This document shows positions 3,979 through 59,016 of a DNA stretch of 64,000 nt, one piece after another; position 1 is the first letter of the stretch, and every line of letters starts with the position of its first letter. Made by a program: the position numbers and the translations under genes. The notes beneath the pieces were generated by a model. The model had not been told where the DNA came from. It saw only the letters and a program-made list of their open reading frames with translations, and did no database searches. The stretch spans positions 1,482,551 to 1,546,550 of the forward strand of contig OZ242260.1 in NCBI GenBank assembly GCA_965207065.1, given 5' to 3'. The DNA comes from a bacterium. Its GTDB lineage: Bacteria; UBA8248.

Positions 3979-4051
3979 ACCAACATAGATCTCCTATGAG
4001 GCGCGCAGAACTGGCGTTATCGCTCTGCATATGTTCCCTCTATAGGAGATA

Positions 4052-4248
4052 CGGATATCGAGGCCACCTTCCGCAGCCTCTAATCCGAGTTCGGCCTTCG
4101 CCCGATCTGGCACCAGTTCGACCGTCGCATCGCGGCCCACCTGCTGATCGCCGTGCTGGCCTATCACGCCGTGCATCTGATCCGCACCCGGCTGGCCGCG
4201 CGGGGCATCCACAGTGTTCCCCGCCCGCGCGGGGATGAACCTAGTTGA
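4052..4248 (+). pseudogene. IS4/IS1634-family transposase C-terminal remnant with in-frame stop
   Basis: Translation ...ATFRSL*SELGLRPIWHQFDRRIAAHLLIAVLAYHAVHLIRTRL... is the conserved extreme C-terminus of IS4-group transposases; TAA replaces a Lys codon. Confidence 0.5.
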
Positions 4249-4360
4249 AGCCCCATGGCAAAACTCGCTAAGTCCTTATCGAATAACTGATAAGCTGATC
4301 TATTCATCGTTTAGAGGGTTTGGATTCTGAAGTTCGTAAGACTGTAATTACAAGCTCGAC

Positions 4361-5263
4361 TCAGATTGTCGAGAGTGTGTCTCGAAGCTTTGTCCACAGT
4401 TGGCGTTCTTGCTGATAGCGGTCCCCCGCCAATTCCAACTCATCAGGGGACAGCTCCTTCAAGAATGCGAAACCCCGCGCGCAATCGGCAGTGATTTGTT
4501 CCTGCTCGATCGTCTGTGTTTTCCGGACCAGTTGCCTGAGGTCGTCCCAATCGAAGGCATCGGCCTCCTGAAATTTCGCCATGAGTGCGTCCGGGTCGAA
4601 GACGTCTCCTGCCTGCCAGAGCTTGAGCACGACGAGCCGACGAATTAGCGGTTTATCGAGCGGCCGGGTCGCAAACATAGCGAGGTCGTAAATGTCACGT
4701 GCCTTGTTTCGCTGGAAGCAAGCACGAAGCTTCTCGGCGATAATTTCGGGCAGTGCCAAGCATGTGATGTCGACTGGGTCGAAGGGTAAGTGTCGGAAGT
4801 AACTCTGTGAGCATTGCGATTTCCGTGACAAGGAAAGACTGGGTATCTCCCGCTGGCTGATCTGAATCCTGATCTCGCTTTCTCCGCCTGGATTCCATTC
4901 GTGTGCGTAAACCGGATTGACACCCCATGACAAACCATCCTGCGTTTCGTAGTAGCTGCCATCCGAAATGCTGAACTGGATTCCGTGAAACGGATGCTCG
5001 AACGCTTCCATTATGGCAAGGATGACGTCTTCGTGATCGTGCTCTTCGGTCCCCGTAAAATCAAGATCGGTCGAAAATCGCCCTCCACTTCCGATGAACA
5101 TCTTGCGCAGGCAGGTGCCACCTTTGAAGGCGAGCCTTTCTAGAATTCCGTGCTCTGCCATCAGCTGGAGCATGTAGGTGAGCACGACTTCGATTTCTGC
5201 GATCATGATGTTGCGCAGCCCGGCTTCTGCGGAGTAGCGCTGGACCTGTGGACGGGTAAGCAT
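4361..5263 (-). CDS. abiEii: AbiEii/AbiGii-family nucleotidyltransferase toxin (type IV toxin-antitoxin)
   Basis: Motif KGGTCLRKMFIGSGGRFSTDLDF typical of DUF1814/AbiEii; start overlaps the antitoxin stop. Confidence 0.75.
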   Translation of the reverse strand: MLTRPQVQRYSAEAGLRNIMIAEIEVVLTYMLQLMAEHGILERLAFKGGTCLRKMFIGSGGRFSTDLDFTGTEEHDHEDVILAIMEAFEHPFHGIQFSISDGSYYETQDGLSWGVNPVYAHEWNPGGESEIRIQISQREIPSLSLSRKSQCSQSYFRHLPFDPVDITCLALPEIIAEKLRACFQRNKARDIYDLAMFATRPLDKPLIRRLVVLKLWQAGDVFDPDALMAKFQEADAFDWDDLRQLVRKTQTIEQEQITADCARGFAFLKELSPDELELAGDRYQQERQLWTKLRDTLSTI

Positions 5264-5266
5264 GGC

Positions 5267-6136
5267 TCAACTTACCCGGTCGACCGTGTGCCGCCGTGCG
5301 AGACTGGCACTCTCGCGCAGTTCCTCTATCCCGACGTTGACGTTGAGCTGCCAGGCGTCCTGATAGCCGATGGCGCTGGGTTTGGGGTTTCTCGGGCCGA
5401 GGAATGCCTTGCTGTTTCCTTTCGATAAATCGAGAAGATGTGCGTAGACGTCGTTAGGGACGGTGGCACCGGCATGATCGGCCAGCCATCCGAAACGTCG
5501 CGTGAGGGTGCGGGAGGCAATCCGTTCCAGATAGTTGGTCGCCCTGTACCAGTCGATGCGACGGCATGCTGTTGCGAGAATAGTCGCGGCCTCTCCCTCA
5601 CCGCCGGCGAGGTCTGGGCGGTCGATGCAGTCGATGACGGTCTTCTCCCGGTCCGACATCATGACCGTGTAACCCAGCACCTCGACTGGCCCGAACCCGA
5701 AGAATTTGCATTGGACCGGATTGATGATACGGACATCGGTATCGAGCACACGCCGGTTGCGCGTACGCACTGGTGTGACGAGCTGAACTACATGGCGGTG
5801 CTGTGTTGTGAACCCGTAGTGCGTCGCGGCCGTGCCGTAGCCGAAGTAATAGGGGTCGGCGATGCGGCTGGCGAGTGCCAATACATTGCTTTCCCCTAGG
5901 GCGTCTGGGCCCATTTCAGGAGGTATGAGCAGATACCGGCCCCAACTCGCGCGTTCCAGCCAACCCTTCCGGCGCAGCGCCCGGATCACATGATCCGCAG
6001 CTTGCGGGCTGACGCCCAGCATGTCGATGATCTCCTGGCGCTCCACTTCCTTGCTGCCGTGCTCTGCCAGACTGAGGACGACACGGCTTTCCTGGGGCGA
6101 TAACGACCGAGTATTGAACGCCATAGTTCCATCCAA
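5267..6136 (-). CDS. abiEi: AbiEi-family antitoxin / transcriptional regulator
   Basis: 289 aa, N-terminal winged-HTH-like region; immediately upstream of and translationally coupled to abiEii; low-GC island. Confidence 0.65.
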   Translation of the reverse strand: MDGTMAFNTRSLSPQESRVVLSLAEHGSKEVERQEIIDMLGVSPQAADHVIRALRRKGWLERASWGRYLLIPPEMGPDALGESNVLALASRIADPYYFGYGTAATHYGFTTQHRHVVQLVTPVRTRNRRVLDTDVRIINPVQCKFFGFGPVEVLGYTVMMSDREKTVIDCIDRPDLAGGEGEAATILATACRRIDWYRATNYLERIASRTLTRRFGWLADHAGATVPNDVYAHLLDLSKGNSKAFLGPRNPKPSAIGYQDAWQLNVNVGIEELRESASLARRHTVDRVS

Positions 6137-6198
6137 TGCGAAACATCATCAAAACTGCGTTTTCGCGAAAAAAGTATCATGCACCAGAATAACAATCA

Positions 6199-6251
6199 AT
6201 ATAATATGTAACAAAACAAAGATATTATTCATGTTTTGTTACATATTATAT
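6199..6251. promoter_or_regulatory. Perfect 20-bp inverted repeat (ATATAATATGTAACAAAACA-N13-TGTTTTGTTACATATTATAT), candidate AbiEi operator
   Basis: Read directly from the sequence ~60 bp upstream of the abiEi start; AbiEi antitoxins autoregulate via inverted repeats in their promoter. Confidence 0.6.
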
Positions 6252-6838
6252 CATCGCTCACGGTCGGCACCCAAGACACTCCGGCATACTCCGCAAATTC
6301 GAGAATGGGCAAATACGTCGGCGGAAGACCGCCATCCCCTAGAGCAATGTCCCGCACCAGTAAGCATTATCTAATGCCATTTTCGGCATGATGCGTGTCG
6401 CTGACGTGCAGCGCTGGTTCGATTCCATGAGCGACACCCCATCAACTCCAATCGGACTTTGCCTGTGCTCTAATGATGTGACAGACGGGGCTTTGGGAGT
6501 TTCACCCTCAGCGTTCACACCTCAGTAGCAACATGCGCTGCTAAATGGCAAAGCCGCACGAGCAGTTCATGTCGCCGGACAAGCTGAAGCACTTAGGCTC
6601 CATGCTCGCTCACGCTGATGGCAATCAGGCTACAGTAGAACCCCGGCTCTACTACTCGCAGAGGTACGGTCCTCGGAAACCACCGGCCTCAGATGGAACT
6701 GGATATTCGGCACCAACGTGGTGCTGCCCGATAGCAAGACTGACCGAAGGCAGACCAGCTTCCACTGCCCGCGCGAGTTACCTCCCCACTGGGAAATCTA
6801 GATTCGACGGAGAGATGGGGCGTCTCTAACCCAGGCTA

Positions 6839-9679
6839 TTAGAGTCCCAGCGTTGCGCAAAGCTCTTTCAGTTTTTCTTTGGGAGATTCGGGAATGTCGG
6901 ATTCGATGAGCTTGTCGATGAGTTCTTTGCCCTTATACCACGCATGAGGGGGCGATTCACACCCGCCCAAATGGAGCAACAGCTTCGCAACCACCTCTGG
7001 ATACCGCCGCCACAAATCGGAGTGGTTGATCTTATGAATTGACAAACCACGTTGCATCGGCTCTTTCGGCATACGAACTGCCAAGACAATTGCTTCGGGA
7101 AATACGTCGCTCTTCAAATACGGCAGCCAATTAAGCATTTGCTCGATTTCACCGACGTTGAGCGGCTTTGGTACACCCTTTAATCGGTTTTGCCAATAGC
7201 GCTTGAGCCAGCGTTTCCACAATGCTTGTTGTTTTTCTTCATTCATTCTACGAAGAAGTTCGTGTATTCGTGATGCGAAATGACTCTGGTCCTCTTCATC
7301 AGAATTATTAAAGAATTCGGGAATCCAGTCCTGGATAGGATCATCGACATAGTACACTAGCATGAGGGTATAGGCTTCGATGAAGCTTGCTCGTCGAGGT
7401 CCATAAAAAATTTCATTTTTGATCTGCGAAACCGCTTCAAGAAAAGGAGCCTTCATAAGCTCGGCCACGGGCGGGCTGAGGGACACATACCGAAAACCAT
7501 CCCATACCGCCTGATAATCACTTATATTGTCATTTGCCATGAATAAAGCCAGCAAATTTTCTCTTGTCCATTTTTCATCGACTGTCAGCAAAAAGGGAAG
7601 TTGACTTACGAGAACAGAGCGCCCCAATCTTCCAGCCAACGATTTCTCTTGAACGATACGAGACAACGCGTCGAGATACTCACCACGGAGAGCATCAGGC
7701 TTAGAGTCTTGCGCTTTTCGCCGCAGAGAAAGACTCCCCAGCCAGAACTGGGCGAGCACGCCGCCGGGATGAACAATGGCTTGATTGTGCCAATTAGAAG
7801 AATTATCGGATGATGCGTCGCGGTCGAGATGTTCCCACAACCTCATGGCAACCTCGTGGGCTTTGGGGAGTAACCTAGGCGTATAAGGCGCGCCGCCGCT
7901 CCTTACGAGCGTGTAAAGCACATCGGCAACTAAACGAGCGCATTCCTGGTACAGTTCACCTCTACTCAGTCGGCAAAGCACTTCGCGGTGCTCGTCCTCA
8001 GTCAGTTCGTTCGACCACGAGCGGAGCAAGGGTTCCCAAAGATCGGAATCCCACACATCCCGCTTGGCTAATTCGTCTACCAAACCGATGCCCCACTCGA
8101 AATTCTGATTTGCCGCATCCTCGACAGCACGAACGAGTCCTCTGCGGTCAGGTCCGTCAAATCTCGACAAATCCGTTTCTTGAAAGGACAATAACTTGTT
8201 CACCCATTCCTCGGCTGGCCGAGACAGAAGTTCCTCGGTGCTCCAAGGGCTTTGAGAGCCAACCGACATCCTATGCCAGGATAATAGATCCGGATGTTCA
8301 TACGGTTGGAAATCAGGATATTGCTCCGATACATCGTCTAGAGCTTCCTTGGCAAAAGGACAGTCCTGGTCGGCGCTATGAAGCCAGTGGAGCAGGCGAA
8401 AATGATGATAGGCAGTCGATTCCTCTTTGTCCTCGTCCTTTTTTATGGGCCAATGGAAAGCGTGCACAGCCTTGATAATGGCCTTTCGCCGTTTCGAGTC
8501 GGCTTCGGGATATGTTTGTTTCAAAAACACAAACACTTCATGATGCGCGGGAGTATCGTGCAAATCCATTCGAGTCAGAAACCAGTCGATTTTCTCGTTT
8601 GGGGTCAAATCTTCGCGTTTAAGCAATGTATGTACCGCCAATCGACGCAAAAGCGGCGCATCCAAATTGACGAGTTGGTCGCACCATCGCGCTGCCGCCT
8701 CCGGCCGATGTGACACCAGCCATTCCAGACAATCACGCGCCACATTTATCAGCATACTGATCGGTTCGTAGTATTCATCTTGTTCATGAGGTTCAATGGC
8801 GCTGCGGCAAAAACTCGACGGATCATAATCACGTGTCGCCGCCTGCCATGCGCAAAGCCTGCGGTGTTGCGCCGCCAAGTGTTCGACGACAGGCGCCAAT
8901 AAAAGCTCTGCCACACGATCTATATTCGGCTTCAACCCCTTTTCCCAAAGTTCATTTAGCTCATACAAACTATGCGTCGACGACAACTCCACATAGATGG
9001 GCGGGTGTTGGTCGTCCGTATTTTCACCAGAAGAGGTAAAACCCGGTTTGATTTCAAGATGACTCGTTGCGCAAGCCACGAAGATTTCAATGAGACTATT
9101 CACCAACCCCGCCTCAATGCAGCGCTCTCCCAAACATTGCAACAGGTGCTCGTCAAGATGTGCAGGAGCAGTGAAAAGCAACAACGAAACCCAACGCGAT
9201 AAGGTATCCGCATCCAGAGGCGGATCATTTTGCAATCCAATCTTCCAGCCTAATCGAGACCAGAACTCTGGGTGCACACGCATTCCGTGTCGGCCAATCA
9301 AGAGAAAAAGTGCATCGGCATTTTCATATACGAATTTCTGCGCCAGCCACCATGCCAATAGCTTATCTCGTTCGCAGATTTCACCGACGCAGAAGAGTCC
9401 GTCCAGATGCTTGCGCTCATCAAGCCAGTCGACCCATTCAGGTGATGAAGCGGCTTCGACGAAGAAACGCGTTTTCACTACATCCGACAGGGCTTCTTCA
9501 ATGAGATCCATTTCTTCCTCGTTAAGGGAAGGCCGCTTCTCCGCTAGGTCAGTTATCTCGCGCTGCCAGTCCAGGATGCCGCGCGCCGCATAATCGGCAA
9601 AACCCTTAACGCCGTTGTAGAGATTTTTTTGTCGGTCGACGGTGGATAGATAATCGGCTCGATGCCGAGCAGTCGCCAC
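6839..9679 (-). CDS. Large alpha-helical C-terminal region (DUF4020-like) of a DSR-like SIR2 defence protein; separated from the SIR2 ORF by a frameshift at an A7 tract
   Basis: 946-aa Trp-rich helical ORF with no P-loop; it would be fused to the SIR2 ORF by a -1 shift in caaaaaaatc (plus-strand ttttttt ~9624-9630); low-GC island. Confidence 0.55.
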   Translation of the reverse strand: MATARHRADYLSTVDRQKNLYNGVKGFADYAARGILDWQREITDLAEKRPSLNEEEMDLIEEALSDVVKTRFFVEAASSPEWVDWLDERKHLDGLFCVGEICERDKLLAWWLAQKFVYENADALFLLIGRHGMRVHPEFWSRLGWKIGLQNDPPLDADTLSRWVSLLLFTAPAHLDEHLLQCLGERCIEAGLVNSLIEIFVACATSHLEIKPGFTSSGENTDDQHPPIYVELSSTHSLYELNELWEKGLKPNIDRVAELLLAPVVEHLAAQHRRLCAWQAATRDYDPSSFCRSAIEPHEQDEYYEPISMLINVARDCLEWLVSHRPEAAARWCDQLVNLDAPLLRRLAVHTLLKREDLTPNEKIDWFLTRMDLHDTPAHHEVFVFLKQTYPEADSKRRKAIIKAVHAFHWPIKKDEDKEESTAYHHFRLLHWLHSADQDCPFAKEALDDVSEQYPDFQPYEHPDLLSWHRMSVGSQSPWSTEELLSRPAEEWVNKLLSFQETDLSRFDGPDRRGLVRAVEDAANQNFEWGIGLVDELAKRDVWDSDLWEPLLRSWSNELTEDEHREVLCRLSRGELYQECARLVADVLYTLVRSGGAPYTPRLLPKAHEVAMRLWEHLDRDASSDNSSNWHNQAIVHPGGVLAQFWLGSLSLRRKAQDSKPDALRGEYLDALSRIVQEKSLAGRLGRSVLVSQLPFLLTVDEKWTRENLLALFMANDNISDYQAVWDGFRYVSLSPPVAELMKAPFLEAVSQIKNEIFYGPRRASFIEAYTLMLVYYVDDPIQDWIPEFFNNSDEEDQSHFASRIHELLRRMNEEKQQALWKRWLKRYWQNRLKGVPKPLNVGEIEQMLNWLPYLKSDVFPEAIVLAVRMPKEPMQRGLSIHKINHSDLWRRYPEVVAKLLLHLGGCESPPHAWYKGKELIDKLIESDIPESPKEKLKELCATLGL

Positions 9680-10374
9680 CGCGCCGCATCGGTCTCATCC
9701 GTGAGCGCGAAACGCCCTCCTGTTTCATCCACCGGCAACGCCCGAGCCAGATAATTCATAATCGTATCGTTGTGGCTATAGCCGACGAAGAGAACGGTGA
9801 ACGAACGGAACAAGTCGAGGAGAAAACGCCGCGCCCATCCCTCAGTCAGATATGCGCGACCGAAATCCGCGTCCGTAAGCACCATGTCCACAGGATGGGT
9901 GACCGCGCCATGAACGTGAACTATGCCATTAAAGTCATGACCCAGAGGAAGCGCCGGTGCCCGAAACACTTCGAGCTTAGAGTCGAATATGTCCTCCGCC
10001 GCCTGTTCGAACAGCAGGTCGAAGTTAGTGGTGATAACCCGAATCGGTCGTGGCGCCGAGTAGAGTCTTAGCAGAGCACGATGCAAGTCGGTCGGTTTCG
10101 GATCATTTCTGAAAAGTTCTTCTTTCACCCGTTCATGTACGTTAACGCCCTTTTGCCGGAGTTTACCCAGAAAGCGGTCCTCAGTCTCATGCTCTCCTAG
10201 TTTTTCCCCGGTCCCTTGCGCAACTGCCAGTACCAGATCCCTGAAGTTCGGAAGATTCGCCGGTTCACCCATCGAAACACCCGCGCCCGCAAAGACGACC
10301 AAAGTCCCGTCACGCAAGGCGTCCAACAGTGGTCCGGGAAAATCAATGCCTGAAATCTTCACGCTTGTCTCCAA
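9553..10374 (-). CDS. SIR2-family (SIR2_2/ThsA-like) NADase domain protein, N-terminal part of a DSR-like defence protein
   Basis: LVVFAGAGVSMG (Rossmann), ITTNFD (catalytic Asn), VHVHG (catalytic His), FVGYSHND; 3' end overlaps the next ORF by 127 nt. Confidence 0.7.
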   Translation of the reverse strand: METSVKISGIDFPGPLLDALRDGTLVVFAGAGVSMGEPANLPNFRDLVLAVAQGTGEKLGEHETEDRFLGKLRQKGVNVHERVKEELFRNDPKPTDLHRALLRLYSAPRPIRVITTNFDLLFEQAAEDIFDSKLEVFRAPALPLGHDFNGIVHVHGAVTHPVDMVLTDADFGRAYLTEGWARRFLLDLFRSFTVLFVGYSHNDTIMNYLARALPVDETGGRFALTDETDAARWRLLGIEPIIYPPSTDKKISTTALRVLPIMRRAASWTGSAR

Positions 10375-10548
10375 TGACTACCGGAGAACTATCGGCGGAG
10401 TTCCATGCCAAGATACTATGAGGGAATCATCAGTCTCACGCCAGTGACTAGTGCGGCCAATAATGATGGCTTTACCTTCCTGAACCACTCGGACCGGGGA
10501 ATCCGAGTCACGAGTTGTCATTCTCTGAATTCGCACGATCTCACATTT

Positions 10549-10770
10549 CTTTCGCCGATTTACCAGGTAATTCGGGCGCGACTTCGGAGATAGTCCGGCT
10601 GATTTGCTCGATCTCTTCCTCTCGTCCGGCCTTCTCCATGTCGCGGATGATGGCCTGCGCGGTGAACATGGCAGAGCGCAGGAGGTGAATTTCCGCCTCC
10701 GTGCGCGGCCATTCGCGGCGTTTCAGACCATCCATTGTGAACTCGACCACGAGCCGGTTCGGTGAAATGA
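10549..10770 (-). repeat. Copy A of a repeated element encoding a MobC/RHH-like small protein (ORF 10541..10888)
   Basis: Shares the left end AATTCGGGCGCGACTTCGGAGATA... and ~75-85% identity with copies at 22182, 25095, 27420 and 62436; encodes ...NRLVVEFTMDGLKRREWPRTEAEIHLLRSAMFTAQAIIRDMEKAGREEEIEQISRTISEVAPELPG. Confidence 0.6.
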
Positions 10771-10875
10771 CACCCTGAACACAATAGGCAACTTCCGGTT
10801 TGAGCGCCAGATTGTGGCGTGGCGGGATCGTTCGTAATTTGCTCTTCGCCGCAAGGGATAATATTATTATGACAA

Positions 10876-11073
10876 ATGACACGTTCAACGAAGTCCCAGA
10901 AAGCCGAGCGGATCAACGCAGCCTACACGCTGCTCGAGCAGGGCGTCACGGCGAACGAGGCTGTAGCGCTGCTATCGCAGCGTTTCGGCGTATCGCAGCG
11001 GCAGTCCTACCGCTACGTTCAGCAGGCGGTAGCCATGGGCCGGCCGAGCCGGTCGAATCCCGGATTCCCATGA
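10876..11073 (+). CDS. Small HTH protein (65 aa)
   Basis: ORF with ...TANEAVALLSQRFGVSQRQSYRYV (HTH-like); the stop overlaps the next start (ATGA). Confidence 0.4.
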   Translation: MTRSTKSQKAERINAAYTLLEQGVTANEAVALLSQRFGVSQRQSYRYVQQAVAMGRPSRSNPGFP

Positions 11074-11192
11074 CAATCAAGATTCCGGGCGCGTTGGCGC
11101 AAGCCCTGCGTATGCAGGCCAGAAGCAGCGGTCAGGCCATCGGGGACATCGTTGGACGGGCCCTGAGACGCTTTCTCCCGGATGTGGATTGA
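11070..11192 (+). CDS. Ribbon-helix-helix (Arc/CopG-like) protein, 41 aa
   Basis: MTIKIPGALAQALRMQARSSGQAIGDIVGRALRRFL fits a beta-strand/helix/helix RHH fold. Confidence 0.4.
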   Translation: MTIKIPGALAQALRMQARSSGQAIGDIVGRALRRFLPDVD

Positions 11193-11347
11193 AATGGCTG
11201 CGCGTCGCCCGGGTTCGCGGCCCGGCGTTGAACTTGATTATCGATTCGATCGCCTGTTCGCAGCCAGACTCCAGAATGCCTACGAGATACTGGTTCCTGA
11301 TCAGGTCCACAAAATCCCTGCCCGAAGACATGACACAGGAGACGAGG

Positions 11348-12585
11348 ATGAAAGTCGCAGCCCTTTATGCGTGGGTCTCGGGCGAGCAGCAGAGGGAGAG
11401 CAACACGATCGCCAGCCAGACCGAGGCGCTGGTCGAATACGCCAGGAACCACGGCTACAGCGTCGCGCCGGAGATGCTCGTCTAGGATGACGGCTACAGC
11501 GGCGCTGTTCTCGAGCGTCCGGGGCTGGAGCGGATCAGGGACCTCGCCGCGGAAGGGCGCTTCGATACATTGGTGGTTCATGCCCCGGACCGTTTGAGCC
11601 GCCGCTACGCCCACCAGATGCTGATCATCGAGGAGATGGCCCGCCAGGGCGTTGAGACCGTGTTCGTGAACGCGCCGTCGATGGAAACCCCGGAAGACAA
11701 CCTCCTCGTCCAGTTCCAGGGCATGATCGCGGAATACGAGCGCGCACAGATCCTGGAGCGTTCGCGTCGCGGCAAGCGTCATCGGGCGCAGCGTGGTGAA
11801 GTTGCGGTTCTCGGAGGCGCGCCTTATGGCTACCGCTACCACAAGAAAACCTTCGAGAGCGATGCCTATTATGAAGTGCTCGAACCTCAGGCGTCGGTGG
11901 TTCGCGAAGTCTATCACTACTATACTCATGACCACATGAGCATTGGCGAGATCACCCGCAAGCTCAACGAGCGGGCGGTGCCCACGTCCTCCGGTCGCGG
12001 ACGCTGGGAGCGTTCGGCCGTGTGGGCGATGCTGCGCAACCCGGCGTACAAGGGCAAGGCGTGTTTCGGCAAGACCCGCCAGATGCCGCGAAAAATCGTG
12101 ACCCGTCCCTTGCGATTGCGCGGCGGTGTGGCCGGCGCCACCACCGGCGGTCACGAGAAACCGCGTGAGGAATGGATCGAGATTCCAGTGCCGGCGATCG
12201 TCAGCGAGGAAACCTTCGCCCTGGCCGAAGAGCGGCTGGAGATGAACAAGGCCCGCGGGCCGCGCCGAACAAAGACGCCCAGCGTGGTGCAGGGGCTGGT
12301 CTCATGCGCCAAATGCGGCTATTCCCTGTATCGCACATCGACCCGGACGAGCGCCCGCACGATTTACTATTATCGCTGCCTGGGGCCCGATGCATGGCGG
12401 CATCTCAACGGGCCGGTATGCGACAATCGGCCGGTGCGCCAGGATCTACTTGACGAAGTTGTCTGGAGCGAAGTCGTCCGCCTTCTCGAGGATCCGAATC
12501 TGATCGGCGCCGAGATCGAGCGTCGGCTGGAGGCGGCCCGCGACTCCGACCCCTGTCGGCAGCGCGAGACCGACTTGCGGCGCCG
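11348..12585 (+). pseudogene. Large serine recombinase with in-frame TAG (11483-11485) and a degraded C-terminus
   Basis: Resolvase N-terminus MKVAALYAWVS...; LV*DDGYSGA (stop inside the conserved DDGYSG block); recombinase domain ...ITRKLNERAVPTSSGRGRWERSAVWAMLRNPAYKGK; zinc ribbon CAKCG...CLG; C-terminal coiled-coil replaced by junk. Confidence 0.7.
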
Positions 12586-12840
12586 GTGTTCGTCGTCGAG
12601 GGAGAGACGGCGGAGTTCAGGGTCAGGTTCCAGATACGGCCTTATTACCTTCGCTATTCGTACCGTACGGAAGATGAAACGGCGACGGGGGGTGAGGATT
12701 ACAGTCCTGTCGAGGGCACGGTGGAGTTTGCTCCGGGAGATACGTCCCGGACGGTTTCGGTAGCGACTCTTGCCGACGACGTTTCGGAGGGTCACGAGAC
12801 TTTCAGGTTGGTGTTTGATAATCTCAAGATCAAAAACAAG
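12586..12840 (+). pseudogene. Calx-beta domain gene fragment
   Basis: VFVVEGETAEFRVRF...GGEDYSPVEGTVEFAPGDTSRTVSVATLADDVSEGHETFRLVF matches the Calx-beta repeat; orphan fragment abutting the broken recombinase. Confidence 0.55.
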
Positions 12841-13735
12841 GCGACGATCTACGATGCCCTGCGCGGGAGCGGTCCGGAATGGCGTGACCCCGGCCCCGGC
12901 GAACTCGCTCTCTTCCCGGGGGAGTGGGCCCTGTACGCGGTGATCAGGGGGTCGAACTGATTCGATCGCTGCGTAATCCCCGAGGCGGCCCCCGGCGCCG
13001 CCCGCGCGGAGCAGGACGGGCTTGACCCGGGATCCGGTCCGGAGCATTTCGTCCCTTTTGAGCGTAGCGCGAAGGTATGCGTCGCGATAGATACGTTTGA
13101 TTTAGGCCGCGACTTCCGGCGGAAACTCCTTGAAAACGCTTGAGAGGCCACCCGCGAACCGGATACAAGTGTCAGCGATCCCGGGAAGATACTAGCACCC
13201 CCGCCGAGCGCAAAGGAGGGTCCGTTTGATGGAATAAGGTGAAACCAGAAATGGCTCATTGAGTCTGCTTCATGTGCTCCTGCAATTTACGTCCCTTGTC
13301 CGTCAGCTGATACCTCTGTTTACAGTTTTGAGGCTTGTCCGCGATTCCGTGAGGAAGACGTACGAAACCTTTTGAGGGAACGTACGACAGGTCAAAGTCG
13401 GATTACTTGGTCGTGAGGCACAGCCGCACTGTCGGACGCCGACTTTCTGGCCGGCCTATCCGGCACACAGGTCGGCCAAGATTGGTCGCCGGATGTTAGT
13501 GCGTGGAGACAAACCTTGGCCACATAGACGACCGCCTCGGTACGATACAGACTTCGTGGCGTTGGTGGGCCCTTGATCGACGGGTACCCAGCCGCCACAT
13601 TCTCGATGAGATCAACGAGGGAGTCGAACGGCTGTAGGATGGGGAGTCGGCCCGAGGAAGAAATTCTTAAACAACCGGGTTAGTGTCCTCGATATTGCAA
13701 AGATTTCGTTTCAGATAGCCAAAAGGAGAAAAAAC

Positions 13736-18140: not shown

Positions 18141-18160
18141 CCCCCCCCCCCCCCCCCCCC
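18141..18160. repeat. Homopolymeric C20 tract
   Basis: 20 consecutive C read directly; intergenic, ~310 bp upstream of the tandem SLP genes. Confidence 0.9.
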
Positions 18161-21999: not shown

Positions 22000-22181
22000 C
22001 ATTCGGTAATAAGGTGATGGAGGTTGGCCAAGCGAAGAGTTGCGGGATGTTTCTATTCTTGCGCTGCCGCTGATATTAGTGGTCTTACCCGGCTGAAACA
22101 CCTAGATCAGGAAAGCCGACTCACTCCTTGCTATTCTGAAAATCGAATGATGGGATGTCCGGTTTCGAAAGTTTCTCTGGC

Positions 22182-22300
22182 AATTCGGGCGCGACTTCGG
22201 AGATATTCCGGCTGATTTGCTCGATTTCTTCCTCGCGGCCGGCCTTCTCCATGTCGCGGATGATTGCCTGAGCGGTGAACATTGCCGAGCGCAACAGGTG
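22182..22300 (-). repeat. Copy B (truncated) of the RHH-element repeat
   Basis: 119 bp sharing the common end AATTCGGGCGCGACTTCGGAGATATTCCGGCTGATTTGCTCGAT...; diverges after ...GCAACAGGTG. Confidence 0.6.
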
Positions 22301-22989
22301 GGTGCGACAGGCTGCTAGGTTAAATTATTCAGATAATCGGAATAATGCCGTCGCCCGCTCGTAGCCATGGACGTCACGCTTACCGATATTGTCCTTATTC
22401 TCGCGCCACAACTTCACCCCTTTCAAGAGGGACATTGAGGCGCGTGCGCAGCACCTCTTGCGCCTGCAGTTCATTCTGTATTGTTCAGTTTCCCGCCGCT
22501 TCGTTACGGCAGTCGCATCATCAGCCGCTTCGTTCGCCAAGTGGAGATGCGGGTCGAAGCAGCGTTCTCTATGAGGCGTACTGGATCGCCCTAGAAGTCA
22601 CCCTAGTTGTAGGAATTAGTGAAACTCGTGGCCGTGATGCGTGCACGCTTAGACAATGACCGCAACGCTTCGATGTCCCTGGTGCCAAGCGGGCGATCAA
22701 TCCGTTTGTATTGGTATTCGCTCACGACTCGCCCTACCGGTATTAGGCCATTGCGCTATTCACCAAGATTCGGATTCTGCAAGAAAAATGATCCCCGTGT
22801 TTATGCTTGATGGCAACCGTGTGCGGCGCATACCCGGCGAAGACGGCAGGAATTCCTTTACCTTGCCTGCAAATTTACTTCCACCTTCTCCAATCGAGTT
22901 GGCCGGGACAAGTTTATTTGCCCCGGTTTTGTGGCCGAAACTCTTGTGGCCAGATTTACCCACCTGTTATTATCTCAATATAGATAATT

Positions 22990-24727: not shown

Positions 24728-25094
24728 TGTTGGTTCTCCCTGTCTATAAAGAAAAGATTCGGAGGCCCGCTCGGGCGCATCAACAGCGGCGAGATACCGG
24801 CACACTTGAACGGCGGCCCGGGTCTCTCGTCAGTGGCGGGCTTGATTGTTAAAGCGTTCGCATTTATGCTCGTAGCCATTCGGATATACTGAGGCGTTTT
24901 GGCCAAGGTTGAAGGGTCACTAATGTGCACAACATACCACAACCGGTTGCTGAGAAACCAAACTCTTTATCTTTACAAAAATGGTAGATATAGGCGGCTT
25001 TACTTGGCTGAAACTTATGAATTGTTACAGTCTGCCTGCTTCCCCTTTTCTCTGAACCTGCCTGCTTTTTGAATCTTTCCCTGATTTCCCCGGA

Positions 25095-25196
25095 AATTCC
25101 TGCGCGATTCGGGAGATAGTGCGGCTGATTTGCTCGATTTCCTCCTCGCGTCTGTCTTGTTCCATGTCGCGGTCTTGGGCTGCGAACATGGCCGAC
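25095..25196 (-). repeat. Copy C (truncated) of the RHH-element repeat
   Basis: ~100 bp homologous to the common end of copies A/B/D/E. Confidence 0.55.
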
Positions 25197-26990: not shown

Positions 26991-27419
26991 GCCCCTCCCG
27001 CGCTTGCATCACATGGTTTCCGTGCCAAGTAAGCTTGCACCATCATCGTGCGCGACGTGAAATTAATAGAGATTTCCCACGCGCTTCTCGTCAAATTAAA
27101 TTCTAAGGAATGGTTCAGAGGAATGCGCAAGACCAAGAGATGTTGCGGCTATTGCCTGCAAATCTCTGCTTCATCATTTTGTATCAACGCAGTTCGGGCC
27201 GATGCACAGGTCTCGGTAATCACATCGTGCCCCGAACAAAGTGTCAGTTTGAACATGTAAAGCAACGATATCTCGCGGATACGGTCTGTCGAATGTCTAT
27301 GTGGCGTGAATTTTCGACTTTCATAACCATTTCTCAGATGATCCATGATCGCGCAGTTTATGGATTGACGCCGCTCGAGTCTGTCCAACCCCGCATAATC
27401 TTCTGCCGATTTACGCTGC

Positions 27420-36804: not shown

Positions 36805-36952
36805 CGTAACCTCCTGTTGTGAATAGGCGCCCGAAGCGCGGGCGCGGACAGGAGAGACGATGCAAAAGTTATGTGGAGTTCGCTACCCGCAAACCACACA
36901 AAAACTACGAACTCCAGGATGAACTCCACATAACCATGAACTCCACATAATC

Positions 36953-37582: not shown

Positions 37583-37772
37583 GGTGGCGCATCTCCTTGT
37601 GCTGAATGACCGGGCTTCTGACAACCCTATTTCAGCAGGATGCGCCGCCTTCTTCAATTCAGCCCATACACAAGTTCTGAGAGTAACTCCAGTATATACG
37701 ATGATTTTTGCAAAAGGAAAAATTGGTGATTGGTCGTAATTGCATAAGGCATATACTCACTTGACTAACCCA

Positions 37773-40746: not shown

Positions 40747-40999
40747 GACCTTCCCTCCCTATGATGATAACAATATACATCATTTAATTGGGTTAGTCAA
40801 GTGAGTATATGCCTTGCATAAAGGTACACTCTACGTTACGTCTGTTCGGTATTTCTTTTTTGCTCCTTATTCCCTATGTCCAAATCTTCGATCCACACGG
40901 AACTAACTGCGCCGTCAATATTATTATGTTCAGCTTACCACGGAATGATCTCGCAGCTGACTAGATACTGAGATAATCACTATCATTGGCACCAGAAGG

Positions 41000-44911: not shown

Positions 44912-44958
44912 AAAAATCCCAATCTTTCGAACTGATCCTTCGCCCGTTTTCAGACGGC

Positions 44959-52185: not shown

Positions 52186-54216
52186 TCAAGCCGAAATTTC
52201 GCGCAACTGGCTTGCGATGCGCAGCCGAAGTTTCTTCGTAACCGACAATGCCGGGAACGGGTTGATTTTCAGCTTATAGTCTTTAGGCGGCAGCGCGAAC
52301 TCGAAATGATGCGCTATAACCAACACGGTAACCGTCAACTGCAAATGCATCCATGCCCATCCTGCGCACGAGTGGGTATCCAAGCCGTTCGGAGCGTATC
52401 CAGGACCTTGATGCTCATTGCGCGGCGGCAGGTAACGGTCGATATCGAATTCGTAGGGGTCTGCGAAGCAATCACTCATGTAGTGCGCCGCGGTTTGCAC
52501 AATGTACAACCGTTCCCTGAGCGGCAGTGAATAATTTTCCACGACGCAAGAACTTGCGACATCGCGAAGATGTATGCAGATAATCGGATACATTCGTAAA
52601 CATTCCATGAGAAAACGTCTGGTAACGTCATACTTGTCCGGCGAAAACTCGTCTTTATCCGGGTCGCCGCCATCGAAAAGCGCGTTTGCCTCTTCACGAA
52701 TTCTCGCCGTAATTTCCGGCTGTCTGGCCATTTCATAAAGCACGAATCCCAACATGTCCCCTAGATAAATACTTTGAAACACAGGCGTTACCGCCAGCAT
52801 GAACAGCAGGTTTTGCTCCGGGATAAACTGCGGGTCGCTGTTGTGCAGAGAAATCAGTTCGTCCGCCAGATCCTCGGCAACACCTGCGCGGTGAATGGGT
52901 ATATGGTTCTGCTCGATGCGCCGCAGGAGTTTCTCGTAAAGCTGAAAGCGATACTTCATGCCGGGAGTGCGCGTCAGGAATTTCGGCAGAAAATCCGCAA
53001 CGTAGCAAAGGATTGCTCTTTCATTCCATTTGACCAGATCTTCAAATACATCTTGCGAATCCGTACTAATAAGAACCTGAGACATTTGAAAATTGGTCAT
53101 CAACCGGGTATCTCGCTGTACTTCTAGTCTCGAGCCCGCCTGCCACTCTTGACTTATCATGAATTGGCGGCTCAGTCGGAACATATCATCCAGCCTCTCA
53201 TAGAAACTGGCTTTCGAGTAAATTCTCCCCATCAGCTTGCGCAATCGAAAATGATCGGCTCCGTCCATCGACGGCAGTAAATTGTTTGCGCCGCAAACCA
53301 TCTCCATCTTGCGAAAAAAATTGCCGGAAGTTAAAAACCTTCGGGAATTTCGACGCACCCAATGATTGATATCAGGTCCAGCCAAAAATGTTCGCGGCTC
53401 TTGAAACGGCGCACAGATTTGAAAGACCGGACCATATCGGTCGGCCAGATTTCCGAACAGCGCCGGCAGGTTGCCGTCCCACAAATGCCGATTTGCAAGC
53501 AAGCTCTTTAGGGGAATCTTCGGAATTGGTTTTGTGAGGGGTGAGTGTTGCAATGCAGGCGTAATGGCGACTTGCTTGACGGCAGTGGAAATGACCCGGT
53601 TGAGCAGTTCCGTTTTACAAACCAGGTCAATTCGCTTTTTCTCTTCCTCATCCAGCTCGAAAATAAATTTAATGATATCGCACGCATCCAAAAGACCGAT
53701 TATCAGGGAATCCCTCGGGTCCGGAATGATATCCGTGAAAATCACCTCCTCGATTCTCGATTTGATGTACCTTCCGACGCTCTCGCTTCGGGGATAACGT
53801 TCCAATTCCGCATGCCAGGCGCAGTGGTTCGTTGTGTAAAACTCACCATCATGGCGCGTCAGAATTTCGGACTTGAGCAAGTGCTTCAGCGTAGCATCGA
53901 TGATGTCTTCCGAATGAACTGCAAGCCGCTCAATCCAGTATCGCGGTTCTTCCAGATTGGGATGGGATGCGATCTCTTCCAGGCATAAATCCAGTGCCAG
54001 GTCGCCTGTTTTGGTTGAATCCAGGAGAAAAAGCGATTCTTCATCTGTATCAACGCGTGATTTCAAGGAGAGATCGGCCAGAACAGCGCCGATGGTGGCG
54101 CAGTTCAACGTCCAGCCCTCCACTTGGTGGAAATAACCGTTCTGCTCGTTGAGAATCGTCAGGATGAATTCTTGCGGGATATTCAACGATTGCTTCGTTA
54201 TCATGTTACACTCCAT
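52186..54216 (-). CDS. GPP34 (GOLPH3-like) domain fused to a cytochrome P450 domain
   Basis: N-terminus ...LNCATIGAVLADLSLKSRV...; C-terminus ExxR (ECLRMYP), PERF-like DRYL, haem loop NGLDTHSCAGWAWMHLQL; the in-window start is probably MECNM/MITKQ (the upstream extension is junk). Confidence 0.6.
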   Translation of the reverse strand: MECNMITKQSLNIPQEFILTILNEQNGYFHQVEGWTLNCATIGAVLADLSLKSRVDTDEESLFLLDSTKTGDLALDLCLEEIASHPNLEEPRYWIERLAVHSEDIIDATLKHLLKSEILTRHDGEFYTTNHCAWHAELERYPRSESVGRYIKSRIEEVIFTDIIPDPRDSLIIGLLDACDIIKFIFELDEEEKKRIDLVCKTELLNRVISTAVKQVAITPALQHSPLTKPIPKIPLKSLLANRHLWDGNLPALFGNLADRYGPVFQICAPFQEPRTFLAGPDINHWVRRNSRRFLTSGNFFRKMEMVCGANNLLPSMDGADHFRLRKLMGRIYSKASFYERLDDMFRLSRQFMISQEWQAGSRLEVQRDTRLMTNFQMSQVLISTDSQDVFEDLVKWNERAILCYVADFLPKFLTRTPGMKYRFQLYEKLLRRIEQNHIPIHRAGVAEDLADELISLHNSDPQFIPEQNLLFMLAVTPVFQSIYLGDMLGFVLYEMARQPEITARIREEANALFDGGDPDKDEFSPDKYDVTRRFLMECLRMYPIICIHLRDVASSCVVENYSLPLRERLYIVQTAAHYMSDCFADPYEFDIDRYLPPRNEHQGPGYAPNGLDTHSCAGWAWMHLQLTVTVLVIAHHFEFALPPKDYKLKINPFPALSVTKKLRLRIASQLREISA

Positions 54217-54284
54217 TCCTCGTGATTTGATTCTTTCTCGTGATGCCGATTCCTGCGGCTTCCGGTCCCCTTTTTTCCATCCCT

Positions 54285-57200
54285 CTACGAGATCTTCTTT
54301 GCCGTTCCGGTTCCGCCGTCCGGCTTCATGTCCACAGCCGCCACTCTTCCAGCCATGACGCGTTGACTTCTCGCCGGTAATATCATGCTCTTTCGTCGCT
54401 TCCGGCGACGCTGCTCGTAGAGACCAAGCGCGTGCAGGGGGAAATACTGGCGGTAGAGCACGTAATCCAGGAGCGCCGTCCGAAAAAAAACGCCGGGCAT
54501 GTCCTGCTTGGGCCAAGTCCCGTCTGCTTCCTGCGTATTAAGCAGGAAGCCAGCGCCCCGGGAAATCGCGGCCCAGTCTGTTTCGTCCGCCTTGAGGAGT
54601 GCTATCAGCGCCCACGCGGTCTGTATGACCTGGCTTTCCTGATGCGGGACGTAGCAACCGCTTAGGCAGCCGCTGTGGTGTTCGCCCCATCCCCCGTCTG
54701 GCTGCTGGCGCTCCAGCAGCCAGCGGCAAGACGCGCGCAGCGCCGGATCGCTTGGACCGGCCCGGTCCGAAACAAGGCCCCAGATGCCGAAAAGGGTGCC
54801 GTAGATGTACTGGACCCCCCATACGCCGCGCCAACTGCCGTCAGCCATCTGGTTCCGTCGCAACCACAAGGCGCCCCGGGCGATGGAGTCGGCAACCACT
54901 GACCTGTCGCCAATTTCAGGAAATCGATCCCGGCAGACAGCCAGCGCCGCGATACAAGACGCGGTACATTCGACAAAAGAATGCTCGGTCATCGATTCGC
55001 CGAACATCTCTGCAGGATTCAAGCGCTCCAGATCAATTGCCGAGCGCCTGGCCTCATAACTGCCGAAGCCGCCGTCGGGGTTCTGGCTTCGCAACATAAA
55101 GCCAATCGCTTCGCTGAGCACGGACGAGTCCGTGTCGTCTCCGTGGGCGGCGACGAGTCCAAGCACCGCCTGCGCCGTGCAGTCACTCACCGGCCAGCCA
55201 TGCCACCCACCGGCGAAGCACCAGCCGCCTTTGGGGTCAGCGCGGTAGGCTTCACGAAACCGTTCAAAGCTGATCTTGATCTGTTCGCCGAGCAGAAAAT
55301 CGGCGCCGCGCCGGAGCGCATCCCGAACACGGTCCGTCTCAGGCATGGTAGCCAGAGCCTGCAGCGCGAACCCGGTATCCCACGAAGCGCTTCTTGCTCC
55401 GGTGACCCGCAAGCCGTCGTCTTCGTCTTCCCATATCCAGGAATCCATTTTCGATAGCGCCCTTCGGCAATCGGTATCGTCCGGATCGTGCAGCCACAGC
55501 GCCAGAATGTTGAGAATGCCGCTGACTGGAGAGATGCTCGTATGGCTGGTGGTCTGCAGTTCCCATCTGATCTGCCCGAGAATTGCATCCATGCACCGTG
55601 TGCGCAGGTGTTTGCTGTGGAACCGCTCGACCAGCCGTGCAAATCTATATCCGAGCCTGAGCCAGACGGACGGCCTTGCAAAAAGATCGGCATCCCGAAG
55701 CCGGTTCCTAGCGGCGAGAAAATCGGCCCTGGCAAAACCTTGCGGATAAAGCTCTTCCCGCAACGCAGCGATAACTGGTGTGACGGGCGCCTGGTACCGG
55801 CGGGCATAAATCGACGCCATCGCCATATAGATGAGCCGTGTATGGCAGTACCAGTTGGAGGGATGCAGCGGTATCTTCCGCGGCAGGCTCCACAATTCCG
55901 GCAGAACAGCGTTCACGCCGTTCCAATCATAAAGATTAAGGAGCGCCAGCCAGAATTTTCCCCAGCTCGGAATGCCGAGAATCCCCTCGGCCTGAATGAA
56001 CCGCCGGGCCGGCGCGATCAGGGGGTCATCCGGCTCTACACCGAGCAGCCGCGCCGCGACATAAACGAGGGCGGTGACGAACAGATGGGGCGACGAATGC
56101 TCGTGCAGGCCCCATGAACCGTCTTGGAGACGGGTCCTCTCAAACGAGTGCAGCACCCGGCGCCGCTTTCCCGGATCGAGCGGCTGGCCGATGATGTGGT
56201 GGAGCAGTACGTATTGCGCCGTGAGCATGGGACACCAGACCATCTCGCCTTCCCAGTCGCCGTCCTCTCTCTGCAGTTGCACGAGGCATTGGGCGGCGCT
56301 TTCCAGCGCCGGACCGGCATCGGGCGAATCGACCTCTCCGGCGCGGGCGGGCCGCTCCGATTCGGTTTTCGAAGGGATGGTATAGGGGAATGCCCGTCGT
56401 AGGTGCTCTCGCGCTTTCGCGCTTTCCTCCCTTCCTTCCCTGGCCGCCTCCCTCAACTGGCGGATGCCGAGCAGCAACCACCAAAGGCGAGCAGCCAACG
56501 CGCGAAAGTTCACCAATATCCGACGCCATAGAAACCTGCGGATGGAGAAGGTTGTCTCCCGGCTCATTGCCCGCGCGACAGTTTCGCAAAAGGAGAAAAC
56601 CGTCATTGGCATGGACAACTCTTGGCAGGCAAGTATCCGCATGGTCCGGTCCCGATACCCCGAATTCGCTCGCCAGCCCTGGTAAACGGCCTTTCTGAGC
56701 ATAACCGATTCGGTGCGGTAATCGGTCAACACCTCATAAAGCCCCATGGCAAGGAACTCGGGAATACGGGTCGCCTGGAACCGCTTTGCGGTGAATTGCT
56801 GGAAGTCCTCGCTTTCGGAGAGCGCCAGCGCATCGCCGAAGCCGAGAGTCATGCCGACTGCCGTCATGGGATGATAGTGTCCGGCCGCATCGCCGATAAG
56901 CACCCGGTGCGGGTTCCCGTACGTGACACGCGGTCTCAACTGGTTGGCGGCGGCATAGAATCGCCTGACGTGCAGCGCTTCGACGAAGGCCGGCCCGAGA
57001 TTTCCTGGAAGCAGCCTGCCATAGGATTCAGACAAGAAACTTATCCGGTCCTTGGAATTCCAACAATCCAATGGGACATCCAGGTTGACCCGGACGGAGC
57101 CGTTCGCAAGTCCGTAAATGAAAATTGGACCCGGCCCACCCAGAACCAGATGGCCGTATCCTTCAAACAGCAGGTCGGCGTCGTGTAACGTCACCCCGAG

Positions 57201-57718
57201 CATCCGCGAACAGAGCATCGGGTCCATGGAATATCCCAAGGATCTGCGCACGATCGAAGCGCGGCCGTCGGCGCCGATAATTCGGTCGACATTTATGGCG
57301 CATTCCAAGCCATTTCTCGAGAAGGTAATCCGTTCGTCTTCAACGACATTGACCCGCGCGTGGGAAATGAAATCGACATTGGCCTCGTTCTCAATGACCT
57401 CGCGGAGGCTTGAAACGAGCAGCGCGTGGTCGCATACCAGACCCCGTGAACCGTCTGGATAAGGAAGCAGGATCGGGTCGGAGTCGTCGTCGGGCAGCAC
57501 CACGAAACCGACGCCCGACTTGCTGCCGGACAGCGTGTCGACATCAATCCCGATGTCACGCAACAACTTCACTCCCGGCGGATGCAACCATTCGCCTGCA
57601 AGGCGTTTAGACGCTTTCGGATTCGCTTCGAGCAGGGCCACCTTAACGCCCTTGCGCGCAAGGACAATTGCGCATACGCTTCCCACCGGTCCCGCGCCGA
57701 TAATGGCGGCATCATACT
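54285..57718 (-). CDS. Bifunctional squalene monooxygenase (FAD) - oxidosqualene cyclase fusion protein
   Basis: N-terminal domain: YDAAIIGAGPVGSV (FAD GxGxxG), GEWLHPPG (cf. GELLQPGG), IIGADGRASIVRRSL, IGDAAGHYHPMTAVGMTLGFGD (squalene-epoxidase GD motif). C-terminal domain: QW-type repeats, GWPVSDCTAQAV (OSC catalytic VxDCTAE motif), GGWGEH. Single frame with no stop; the likely start is GTG at ~57718 (the track Met at 57839 adds an Arg/Ser-rich junk extension). Confidence 0.7.
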
Positions 57719-57729
57719 TCGGCACCGAG

Positions 57730-59016
57730 TCAGCGCTCCTCAAAGGGCGCTGAGTACAGCGCGGCGGCGGTTGTGAAGGGCAGGTCGCCGTCCTGGATCG
57801 AGAGCAGGAACGTTTCCGGACCCTCGATCTCGTCATCATGCTCGGTGGGAATAGAGAAGCGGTACCGGGGCCACCCCGCCGGGATAGTCAAATTGTAGGG
57901 GCCGCCCGTGTAGTCCCCTTGTTCCGACGCGGTCTGGTCCGTGTTCACCAATGTAACAGTTGTATTCGTGAACCGAGGCCACGAGAACATCAGTTTCCAT
58001 CTCGAGCACCTCGCCTTTGGCCACCGAGTTGGCGTTGTCCAGATACTCAACACGCTTGTCAGGTCGCTGTGCGTCACGGTCTGCTGGCCGGCGTGCCCAC
58101 GGGCAGGCCGCAGGCGACGTTGGTGTTGCTTGCCCTCGCTCCCGAAAACGACGTTCAGCGTCCCTTCGTAGGCGTTGCCTTCTTCTAGGTTCGCCACTGG
58201 GGTGAGCATGATGAGCGCCTACTGCACCACGTTCGTGGCGAGGCCGGTGAAGGTCAGAGTCAGGTCACTTCCCGTACCGGACACCGTAACGCTGGTTCCG
58301 GTGGTGGCGTAGGAGTAGTCCGAGGTCACGTGATTGGTGTTGCGGACGGTGGTCGAGTTAGTGCCTATGCCGATGGAGAAGTGCGCCACGTCGTCCGTCA
58401 GCAGCCGCTGGCCGAGCTTGACCCTGACCTGCGCCGTGTCGGTCGCGTCGCCTTCGGTCATCCACGTATCCATCGCCTCGAAGGAGACCGTGACCTGCGC
58501 GGTGGCCTCGTCGGCAAAACCCGCCGACAGCAGGACAGGCAACAGCAAGGACAGGAAGAGACGGTGCGGGGAAAAGGTGGTCCGTTTCCAGGGCGTGCGT
58601 CCCGGGGCGCCGATTCTTTTGCGGAGTCCGGAAGCCGCGCCGCGCGGACCGGAGCGGCGGGAAAACTCAGGCGGTGAGGCTGGAAGGCAAAGGCAGCGCC
58701 GCCATGCGGTAACGCTCATGGCCGACGTTCGGTTCGGTTCGGTTCGGTTCGGTTCGGTTCGGTTCGGTTCGGTTCGGTTCGGTTCGGTTCGGTTCGGTTC
58801 GGAGAACATGGTGAAGAACGCTCTCGTCCGGCTTGTCAAGCCCTGATATGAAGCTTTTCTGCTATTGAAGAAGGCCCGAAAAACCAAGGGGAATGTTGCA
58901 AGGCGGCGCGCATCTTCGGTCTCCTTAAAGAATGGGAATAATTCAGCAAAGTTAACAAAGATTTTAGAGATTAACTTCATCATTGAGTTCATCGAATCTT
59001 GATCCTGAATGGTCAA
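57730..59016 (-). pseudogene. Secreted Calx-beta domain protein with in-frame stop (58219-58221), preceded in frame by a (TEPNR)n repeat
   Basis: Signal peptide ...HRLFLSLLLPVLLSAGFADEATAQ, then Calx-beta-like VTVSFEAMDTW...; the second half MLTPVANLEEG...GEGDYTGGPYNLTIPAG... is in the same frame after a stop. Confidence 0.45.
58726..58802. repeat. Pentanucleotide microsatellite (GGTTC)14-15, i.e. (GAACC)n on the coding strand
   Basis: Read directly; lies between an upstream ATG (MFSEPNRT...) and the signal peptide of the Calx-beta gene. Confidence 0.9.

Follow-up and report, generated by a model that had tools for sequence, protein, structure and literature searches.

A DSR1-family anti-phage gene split at a run of seven adenines is most likely a recent pseudogene and not a slippage switch

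We analysed a 64,000-nucleotide (nt) stretch of bacterial DNA (UBA8248; assembly GCA_965207065.1, contig OZ242260.1, positions 1,482,551 to 1,546,550), hereafter the window, in which a gene of the DSR1 family (defence-associated sirtuin 1) is divided between two overlapping open reading frames (ORFs) at a run of seven adenines (A7). The gene is most likely an ordinary recent pseudogene and no regulated slippage switch. A preliminary description of this DNA had offered three explanations for the split, namely sequencing error, recent inactivation, and programmed or phase-variable slippage. Recent inactivation is the best supported of the three and sequencing error stays in contention, while slippage is not supported, given intact alleles that carry a run of only five adenines (A5) and the lack of RNA structure at the site. 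The parts of the split gene are as follows; all positions are those of the window.

6839..10362, minus strand: whole DSR1-family gene (SIR2 plus putative alpha-solenoid sensor), with a 1-nt deletion inside; 1,174 amino acids (aa) with the frame restored
9553..10362, minus strand: N-terminal fragment ORF, SIR2 NADase domain followed by a 23-aa out-of-frame tail, ISTTALRVLPIMRRAASWTGSAR
6839..9679, minus strand: C-terminal fragment ORF, 946 aa as a mechanical ORF; predicted all-alpha solenoid sensor region, including DUF4020
9624..9632, minus strand: lesion, with A7 at 9624-9630; putative ancestral His codon CAC changed to AA

The gene is divided between two frames

The SIR2 ORF (10374..9553, minus strand) has 273 aa when counted from a TTG codon. 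Its likely true start, also used in relatives, is the GTG at 10362, which gives 269 aa and lies 7 nt downstream of a GGAG. The 946-aa ORF (9679..6839) lies in a different frame and overlaps the SIR2 ORF by 127 nt. The A7 run occupies 9624-9630 (T7 on the plus strand) within CGACAAAAAAATC, and the letters at 9621-9634 are GACAAAAAAAT. The split was thus correctly located in the preliminary description, which had placed this overlap at the A7 run. It had also predicted that a -1 shift would produce a single chain of about 1,200 aa, and when such a shift was mimicked by inserting one base at the tract, a 1,178-aa ORF with zero internal stops did result. The restored chain would measure 1,174-1,178 aa, depending on the start. 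Effector and sensor, which share one polypeptide in members of the family, are found in the window on two overlapping ORFs.

In the public annotation the sensor fragment starts at ATG 9511 and is 890 aa long; this record (P0270; NCBI and ENA, from a 4,476,866-bp contig) is 100% identical to window 9511..6839. Exact look-ups of the 946-, 890-, 273- and 269-aa products and of the neighbouring AbiEii protein returned zero matches in the contig index, and scans for promoters and terminators gave hits at chance level only.

The gene is a divergent member of the DSR1 family

Judged from its sequence, the locus is a DSR1-type anti-phage gene, with an N-terminal SIR2 NADase and an alpha-solenoid sensor of about 900 aa. 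The first ORF holds a SIR2_2 domain (Pfam PF13289; expect value (E) 2e-21) and the second a DUF4020 domain (PF13212, E 3e-7). The catalytic Asn (ITTNFD) and His residues (VHVHG) are present in the window and invariant in 38 homologs; in the numbering of the intact relative P0001, the invariant SIR2 residues are T111, T112, N113 and F114, followed by H149, H151 and G152. Both halves match the Dsr1 profiles collinearly, at positions 7-231 and 577-1206 of 1248 in PADLOC PDLC04167 (E 9e-41 and 1e-31) and at positions 7-273 and 602-1223 of 1263 in NCBIfam NF041818 (E 2e-47 and 8e-36), and an intact relative matches the Dsr1 profile with E 8.6e-89. These results bear out the first reading of the gene, both as a SIR2 NADase with its catalytic Asn and His and as a protein of the DSR or SIR2-DUF4020 type, and they specify that type as DSR1. 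On NF041818 the intact relative P0001 scored 298.7 bits and the two window pieces 161 and 123 bits, all below the cut-off of 1,400 bits. Because even the intact relative, at 299 bits, lies so far under this equivalog cut-off of 1,400, the gene is by profile score a divergent family member and no equivalog of the prototype.

The AlphaFold model of an intact, 93%-identical relative (mean predicted local distance difference test score 82.5) has a Rossmann-type SIR2 domain that ends with strand 235-238 and then continues as an unbroken alpha-solenoid; the sensor half is predicted to be almost entirely helical. When this model was searched with Foldseek, the top matches were the cryo-electron microscopy structures of DSR2 (8w56, 8wyd, 8wks, 8wya and 8wyb), followed by HEAT/ARM solenoids. 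A sequence search of solved structures found no DSR1 structure.

DSR1 is a single-protein system that, when expressed in Bacillus, depletes NAD+ transiently and blocks phi29 without collapse of the culture (Garb et al., bioRxiv 10.1101/2021.12.14.472415). The trigger of the E. coli protein EcDsr1 is the major capsid protein of the phage, which is also what the sensor of Avs7, a homolog of the Dsr1 sensor, binds (Nature 2026, PMC13581612). We infer what the sensor of the window protein recognises from its homology to Dsr1: by analogy with the characterised Dsr1 proteins, recognition of a phage protein by the sensor would set free the SIR2 domain, which would then deplete NAD+.

Members of the DSR1/Dsr1 family (Gao et al. 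2020; Garb et al. 2022; NF041818; PADLOC Dsr1) share with the window gene an N-terminal SIR2 domain that carries the catalytic Asn and His and, behind it, the sensor of about 900 aa. Relatives of the window gene are likewise single polypeptides, of about 1,175 aa, and the same mode of action, the sensing of a phage protein followed by NAD+ depletion, would be expected of them. The window copy differs in being split by a frameshift and in lacking a conserved aromatic residue at the SIR2/sensor junction. DSR2 of Bacillus subtilis 29R has the same architecture, SIR2 followed by a long alpha-solenoid, and its structures align with the intact-relative model across about 1,200 columns (E 1e-7), but with a sequence identity of only 12-13%. 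The Dsr2 profiles of PADLOC and NCBIfam match residues 79-169 only, inside SIR2, at E of about 1e-4 and short of a full-length match; moreover, DSR2 senses the tail tube protein and is without DUF4020. The likeness to DSR2 is at the level of the fold only. Avs7 combines a Dsr1-type sensor with a STAND NTPase, a module that the window gene does not have, and its likeness is taken from that one study (PMC13581612).

Homologs are fused single chains

In intact relatives the gene encodes one polypeptide, and the fused state is ancestral. A hypothetical fused query was searched against about 5.8 billion proteins, and the best 120 hits were considered. All of them (120/120) are single chains of 999-1,220 aa, the closest being 93% identical; query coverage is 82% or more throughout and reaches 96-100% in 119 of the hits. 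The C-terminal ORF alone was searched against representatives clustered at 50% identity, which gave 2,200 hits. Among the best 150 of these, which were inspected, about 100 measure 1,130-1,250 aa and are matched from near residue 288 onwards, so that these representatives are fused as well. The remainder are fragments of varied extent. Representatives of about 920-970 aa were considered as natural two-gene variants and rejected, since they start at varied positions or with V, as partial sequences do.

At the genome level, the SIR2/sensor junction is read in one frame at 13/13 loci. Only one of these genes (L015, from Latescibacterota) is broken, and elsewhere: a group II intron of about 720 bp that carries no ORF interrupts it at 7974-8698 (RF02003 102 bits, RF00029 45 bits). 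Because this intron is antisense to the gene, it could not be spliced from the DSR1 mRNA. The opposite case envisaged in the preliminary description, in which the two parts would always be separate genes, was not seen in the 120 best homologs or in the four close alleles described below, all of which are fused. A related intron 5' region occurs in the window itself, at 27958-28221 (RF02003 87 bits), and is 76% identical over 434 nt to the L015 intron.

The lesion combines a deletion and a substitution

The preliminary description had proposed a comparison with intact homologs. We made it with close intact alleles from other contigs, whose nucleotide identity to the window gene is 98.72% (L017), 95.7% (L001), about 90% (L003 and L011) and 85.2% (L002). 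Four intact alleles have A5 and an unbroken frame at the junction. Over 3.5 kb, the alignments to four alleles contain one internal indel only, a gap of one base at the junction, which lies at 9629-9632 on the 5' edge of A7. In the alignment the window reads GA-CAAAAAAATCTC, while L017, L002 and L003 read GACCACAAAAATCTC and L001 reads GATCATAAAAATCTC. The junction of L017, the closest allele, is GACCACAAAAAT, with A5 only; L017 and three further relatives encode Asp-His-Lys-Asn here as GAY-CAY-AAA-AAT, again with A5 only.

The change in the window amounts to one deletion and one C-to-A substitution (9629/9632) within 3 nt, whose order and exact positions are ambiguous in the alignment. The affected column is His in 27, Tyr in 10 and Phe in one of the 38 homologs, and never Gln or Lys, whereas either way of restoring the frame puts Gln or Lys into this always-aromatic column. 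On the model of the intact relative, the frameshift would fall in the loop that links the last Rossmann strand (E235-238) to helix 246-259, immediately behind the strand.

Because the intact alleles, including the 98.7%-identical L017, carry A5 only, the A7 tract is, as far as the aligned alleles tell, a by-product of the lesion and no ancestral or conserved slippery site. There is no chimera or recombination breakpoint at the lesion, identity to L001 being 97-99% on both sides of it. Two metagenome scans with junction patterns gave 0 hits.

Genuine inactivation or consensus error

A genuine and recent inactivating frameshift is, in our assessment, the probable cause of the split. We infer that the lesion is real in the DNA of the organism and that it abolishes function. 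A small complex mutation would have replaced the His codon CAC with AA, shifting the frame after the last beta-strand of SIR2 and incidentally making the A7 run. The outcome would be a SIR2 stub of 246 residues with a 23-aa nonsense tail, followed by a sensor remnant that is untranslated or independently initiated. The event would be recent, falling within the 1.3% nucleotide divergence from an intact allele.

The main alternative is that the gene is intact in the organism, reading for example GAC CAA AAA AAT or GAC CAC AAA AAT, and that one base beside the homopolymer was lost in assembly or polishing. We consider this unlikely, though well within reason, and a number of observations speak for it and weigh against a true inactivation. 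The lesion sits at the edge of the A7 run, and it is next to homopolymers that long-read consensus errors concentrate; the source contig, 4.48 Mb long, was probably assembled from long reads, and long-read metagenome projects supplied relatives. The public record P0270 carries the same split but is apparently the same record or assembly and gives no independent confirmation of it. The downstream frame is stop-free over 2.8 kb, and the overall ratio of nonsynonymous to synonymous rates (dN/dS) against L001 is 0.30, like that of intact pairs. With L002 as outgroup, branch dN/dS was identical on the window and L001 branches, and the counts of nonsynonymous to synonymous changes, 14:7 on the window branch against 12:8 on its sister, are small and differ significantly neither from each other nor from neutrality.

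A comparable case is a second split DSR1 homolog (L016 1269-4807, ENA ERZ25069191 ctg484009_5x_l), in which a 1-nt loss (GG to G) changes CTTGGTATA into CTTGTATA, 10 codons upstream of the position of the window's lesion. Relative to the fused protein P0044, its identity drops at the same point from 100% before the break to 83% after it, which, on a contig of 5x coverage, suggests a chimeric or low-coverage artefact. The window, in contrast, has no identity breakpoint of this kind.

Several further features argue against an error in the window. The lesion is compound, and the window differs from every intact allele by a substitution plus a deletion, which goes beyond a simple miscall of homopolymer length. 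An error that consisted of the deletion only would need an adjacent, real His-to-Gln change at an always-aromatic position by coincidence; because only five other differences from L001 occur within 200 nt on either side of the lesion, the chance of such an independent neighbouring substitution is about 8% at the local divergence. Of the 47 homopolymers of at least 5 nt in 11 long ORFs, the 46 others are in frame, including an A8 and another A7; the 6.5-kb block of DSR1 and AbiE genes contains no other coding indel, and the YAcAr gene at the window's end is in a single frame.

The pattern of substitutions points the same way. Differences between the window and L017 were polarised with L001 as outgroup. 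The amino acid changes specific to the window fall on more conserved columns than those specific to L017 (mean ancestral frequency 0.54 vs 0.25; one-sided Mann-Whitney p = 0.011), a test that was chosen post hoc and compares 14 with 11 changes. Those on the window branch include S84F, D96A, G325C, R491P and L1161P, which are absent from 36 homologs. Such radical substitutions at conserved sites suggest that the gene was already under relaxed constraint. Nearby, a serine recombinase gene contains an in-frame TAG, and a truncated Mutator transposase covers no more than profile positions 21-201 of 379; therefore, genuine decay does occur in the region.

Slippage at the A7 tract

The preliminary description had also raised slippage-based control, in which -1 slippage of the ribosome or of RNA polymerase on the A7 run, or phase variation of the tract, would keep a toxic NADase off or low while some full-length protein is made. 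We regard this as very improbable. A7 runs permit low-level slippage of RNA polymerase and of tRNA-Lys; a -1 slip in the ribosomal P site on AAA AAA would yield ...DKKNLYNG... in the correct downstream frame, and the downstream ORF is still intact. However, the tract is absent from 4/4 close intact alleles, in which the A5 is interrupted by a pyrimidine, and from all 13 more distant loci. The zero-frame reading C AAA AAA is an incomplete X XXY YYZ heptamer, and the slipped product would be without the conserved aromatic residue. No stimulatory RNA structure was found downstream of the tract, either by folding or with Rfam: the 64-84 nt downstream have a minimum free energy weaker than that of 197-199 of 200 shuffles (z +1.8 to +1.9), and Rfam gave no match of any kind in window 4000-13000. 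As for phase variation, seven A residues are short for contingency loci, and the close intact alleles differ from the window by a substitution and a deletion, not by run length. Absence of the tract from a 98.7%-identical intact allele and the weak downstream fold leave the proposed control unsupported.

The programmed -1 sites of dnaX and of the IS1 and IS3 transposases (A AAA AAG or A AAA AAA plus a stimulator) resemble the window in having seven A where the frame must shift by -1. Unlike them, the window's tract is unconserved in orthologs, has an incomplete zero-frame heptamer, lacks a hairpin or pseudoknot, and arose from a disrupting mutation. One could still imagine that the A7 run, having arisen by loss of the His codon, now acts as a reversible on/off switch or leaky -1 site, so that the NADase would be silent in most symbiont cells while a minority regains full-length DSR1; we think this a long shot, a shade less probable again than slippage as first proposed. 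If it were true, as heterogeneity of tract length in the reads would indicate, the locus would illustrate, in a modest way, how an NADase effector can be under contingency control.

A functional two-gene version

Alternatively, the SIR2 stub and the sensor could be made separately, with reinitiation at ATG 9511, and assemble non-covalently into a functional system. This ATG lies 41 nt past the stop of the SIR2 ORF and is preceded by a Shine-Dalgarno-like GAGGA, and the public annotation has its 890-aa protein begin there. We judge such an arrangement the least probable of all, however. The ATG and GAGGA are ordinary coding sequence (NEEEM) that is present in fused relatives too, and neither product would contain residues 246-304, which are modelled with confidence as four helices. 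Among the 150 representatives we found no natural two-gene relatives, the short ones being fragments; the verified split L016, considered as a natural two-gene version, was rejected, as it is a 1-nt deletion on a 5x contig.

The gene lies in a mobile cassette with an AbiE pair

The split gene is accompanied by the following features.

5267..6136, minus strand: AbiEi antitoxin/regulator, intact (PADLOC AbiEi E 1.6e-62; Pfam AbiEi_4 and AbiEi_1 sub-threshold)
4361..5263, minus strand: AbiEii nucleotidyltransferase toxin, intact (PF08843 E 8e-28; PADLOC AbiEii E 1.3e-77)
4214..10769, no strand assigned: putative mobile DSR1 plus AbiE cassette, common to other metagenomic contigs
11342..12763, plus strand: pseudogene of a large serine recombinase (Resolvase, Recombinase and Zn_ribbon_recom domains), interrupted in frame by TAG at 11483-11485 (...EMLV*DDGYSG...); C-terminus scrambled

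The two neighbours form an AbiE pair (type IV toxin-antitoxin / abortive infection), and the synteny of AbiEi and AbiEii is kept in L001, L002 and L017. The cassette is 97.2% identical to L017 5152-11710, 93.3% to L001 1382-7765 and 85% to L002. Because the block is common to contigs at 85-97% identity while its flanks differ, it is, on this comparison, a 6.5-kb mobile cassette. GC content falls to 0.49-0.55 over 6-11 kb, compared with 0.65-0.69 at 1-3 kb and 0.62-0.64 at 11-13 kb; this profile, with the PADLOC and Pfam matches, agrees with the low-GC island beside an AbiE pair that had been noted at the outset. No tRNA genes were found at the island boundaries. Relatives come from metagenome-assembled genomes of Nitrospinota, Latescibacterota, Dadabacteria, Gemmatimonadota, Acidobacteriota and Dehalococcoidia. 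The element that introduced the cassette probably had this serine recombinase, now dead, as its integrase.

The recombinase pseudogene (11342-12763) abuts an ORF with a Calx-beta fragment in another frame (12586-12960). At least five copies of the 3' part of a small gene occur in the window, at 10363-10769, 62434-62679, 27386-27731, 22180-22301 and 25074-25195. Its product contains ...SPNRLVVELVMEAL...EWPRTEAEIHLLRSAMF..AQAIIRDMEKAGR... and looks ribbon-helix-helix-like, with no Pfam match. One copy stands directly upstream of DSR1, as it does in L017 (a 177-aa gene) and in L001 (frameshifted).

Significance for annotation

The two ORFs, one of them public as an 890-aa protein, would be better annotated as one frameshifted DSR1-family pseudogene than as two genes. 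Beyond annotation the significance is small. The locus adds to the evidence that defence cassettes such as DSR1 with AbiE move among uncultured lineages of marine bacteria and symbionts and that small lesions then lead to their loss; the L015 gene is a second member of the DSR1 family that has been knocked out, in that case by the antisense group II intron.

Other features of the window

The window is rich in mobile and defence genes, with an NgoFVII-type restriction enzyme and C5 methylase, IS1595 and Mutator transposases, a tyrosine integrase, an FRG/PDC-S15 protein and a group II intron. Many of these lie in a second low-GC mobile block at 36905-46406, which holds a Mutator fragment, the NgoFVII-type endonuclease with its C5 cytosine methylase, an IS1595 transposase, a tyrosine integrase and an FRG-domain protein that matches the PADLOC candidate system PDC-S15. 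Two long ORFs (467 aa and 442 aa) in the low-GC segment 18469-21391 have no Pfam or PADLOC match. A C20 run at 18141-18160 and a G10 run at 44959-44968, both apparently intergenic, are either real simple-sequence tracts or assembly oddities.

A sterol-synthesis-like cluster occupies 49667-57839. In it, a 1,184-aa ORF (57839..54285) fuses squalene epoxidase (PF08491, FAD_binding_3) to the N and C domains of a squalene/oxidosqualene cyclase. The window's only A8 run (54483-54490) was considered as a second homopolymer break and rejected, being in frame (GVFFR of the cyclase); the overlap of two long minus-strand ORFs at this run is due to over-extension of an ORF. Beside the fusion lie an ORF combining GPP34 with a cytochrome P450 C-terminal part (54516..52186) and a transporter with MMPL/sterol-sensing domain (49667-52006).

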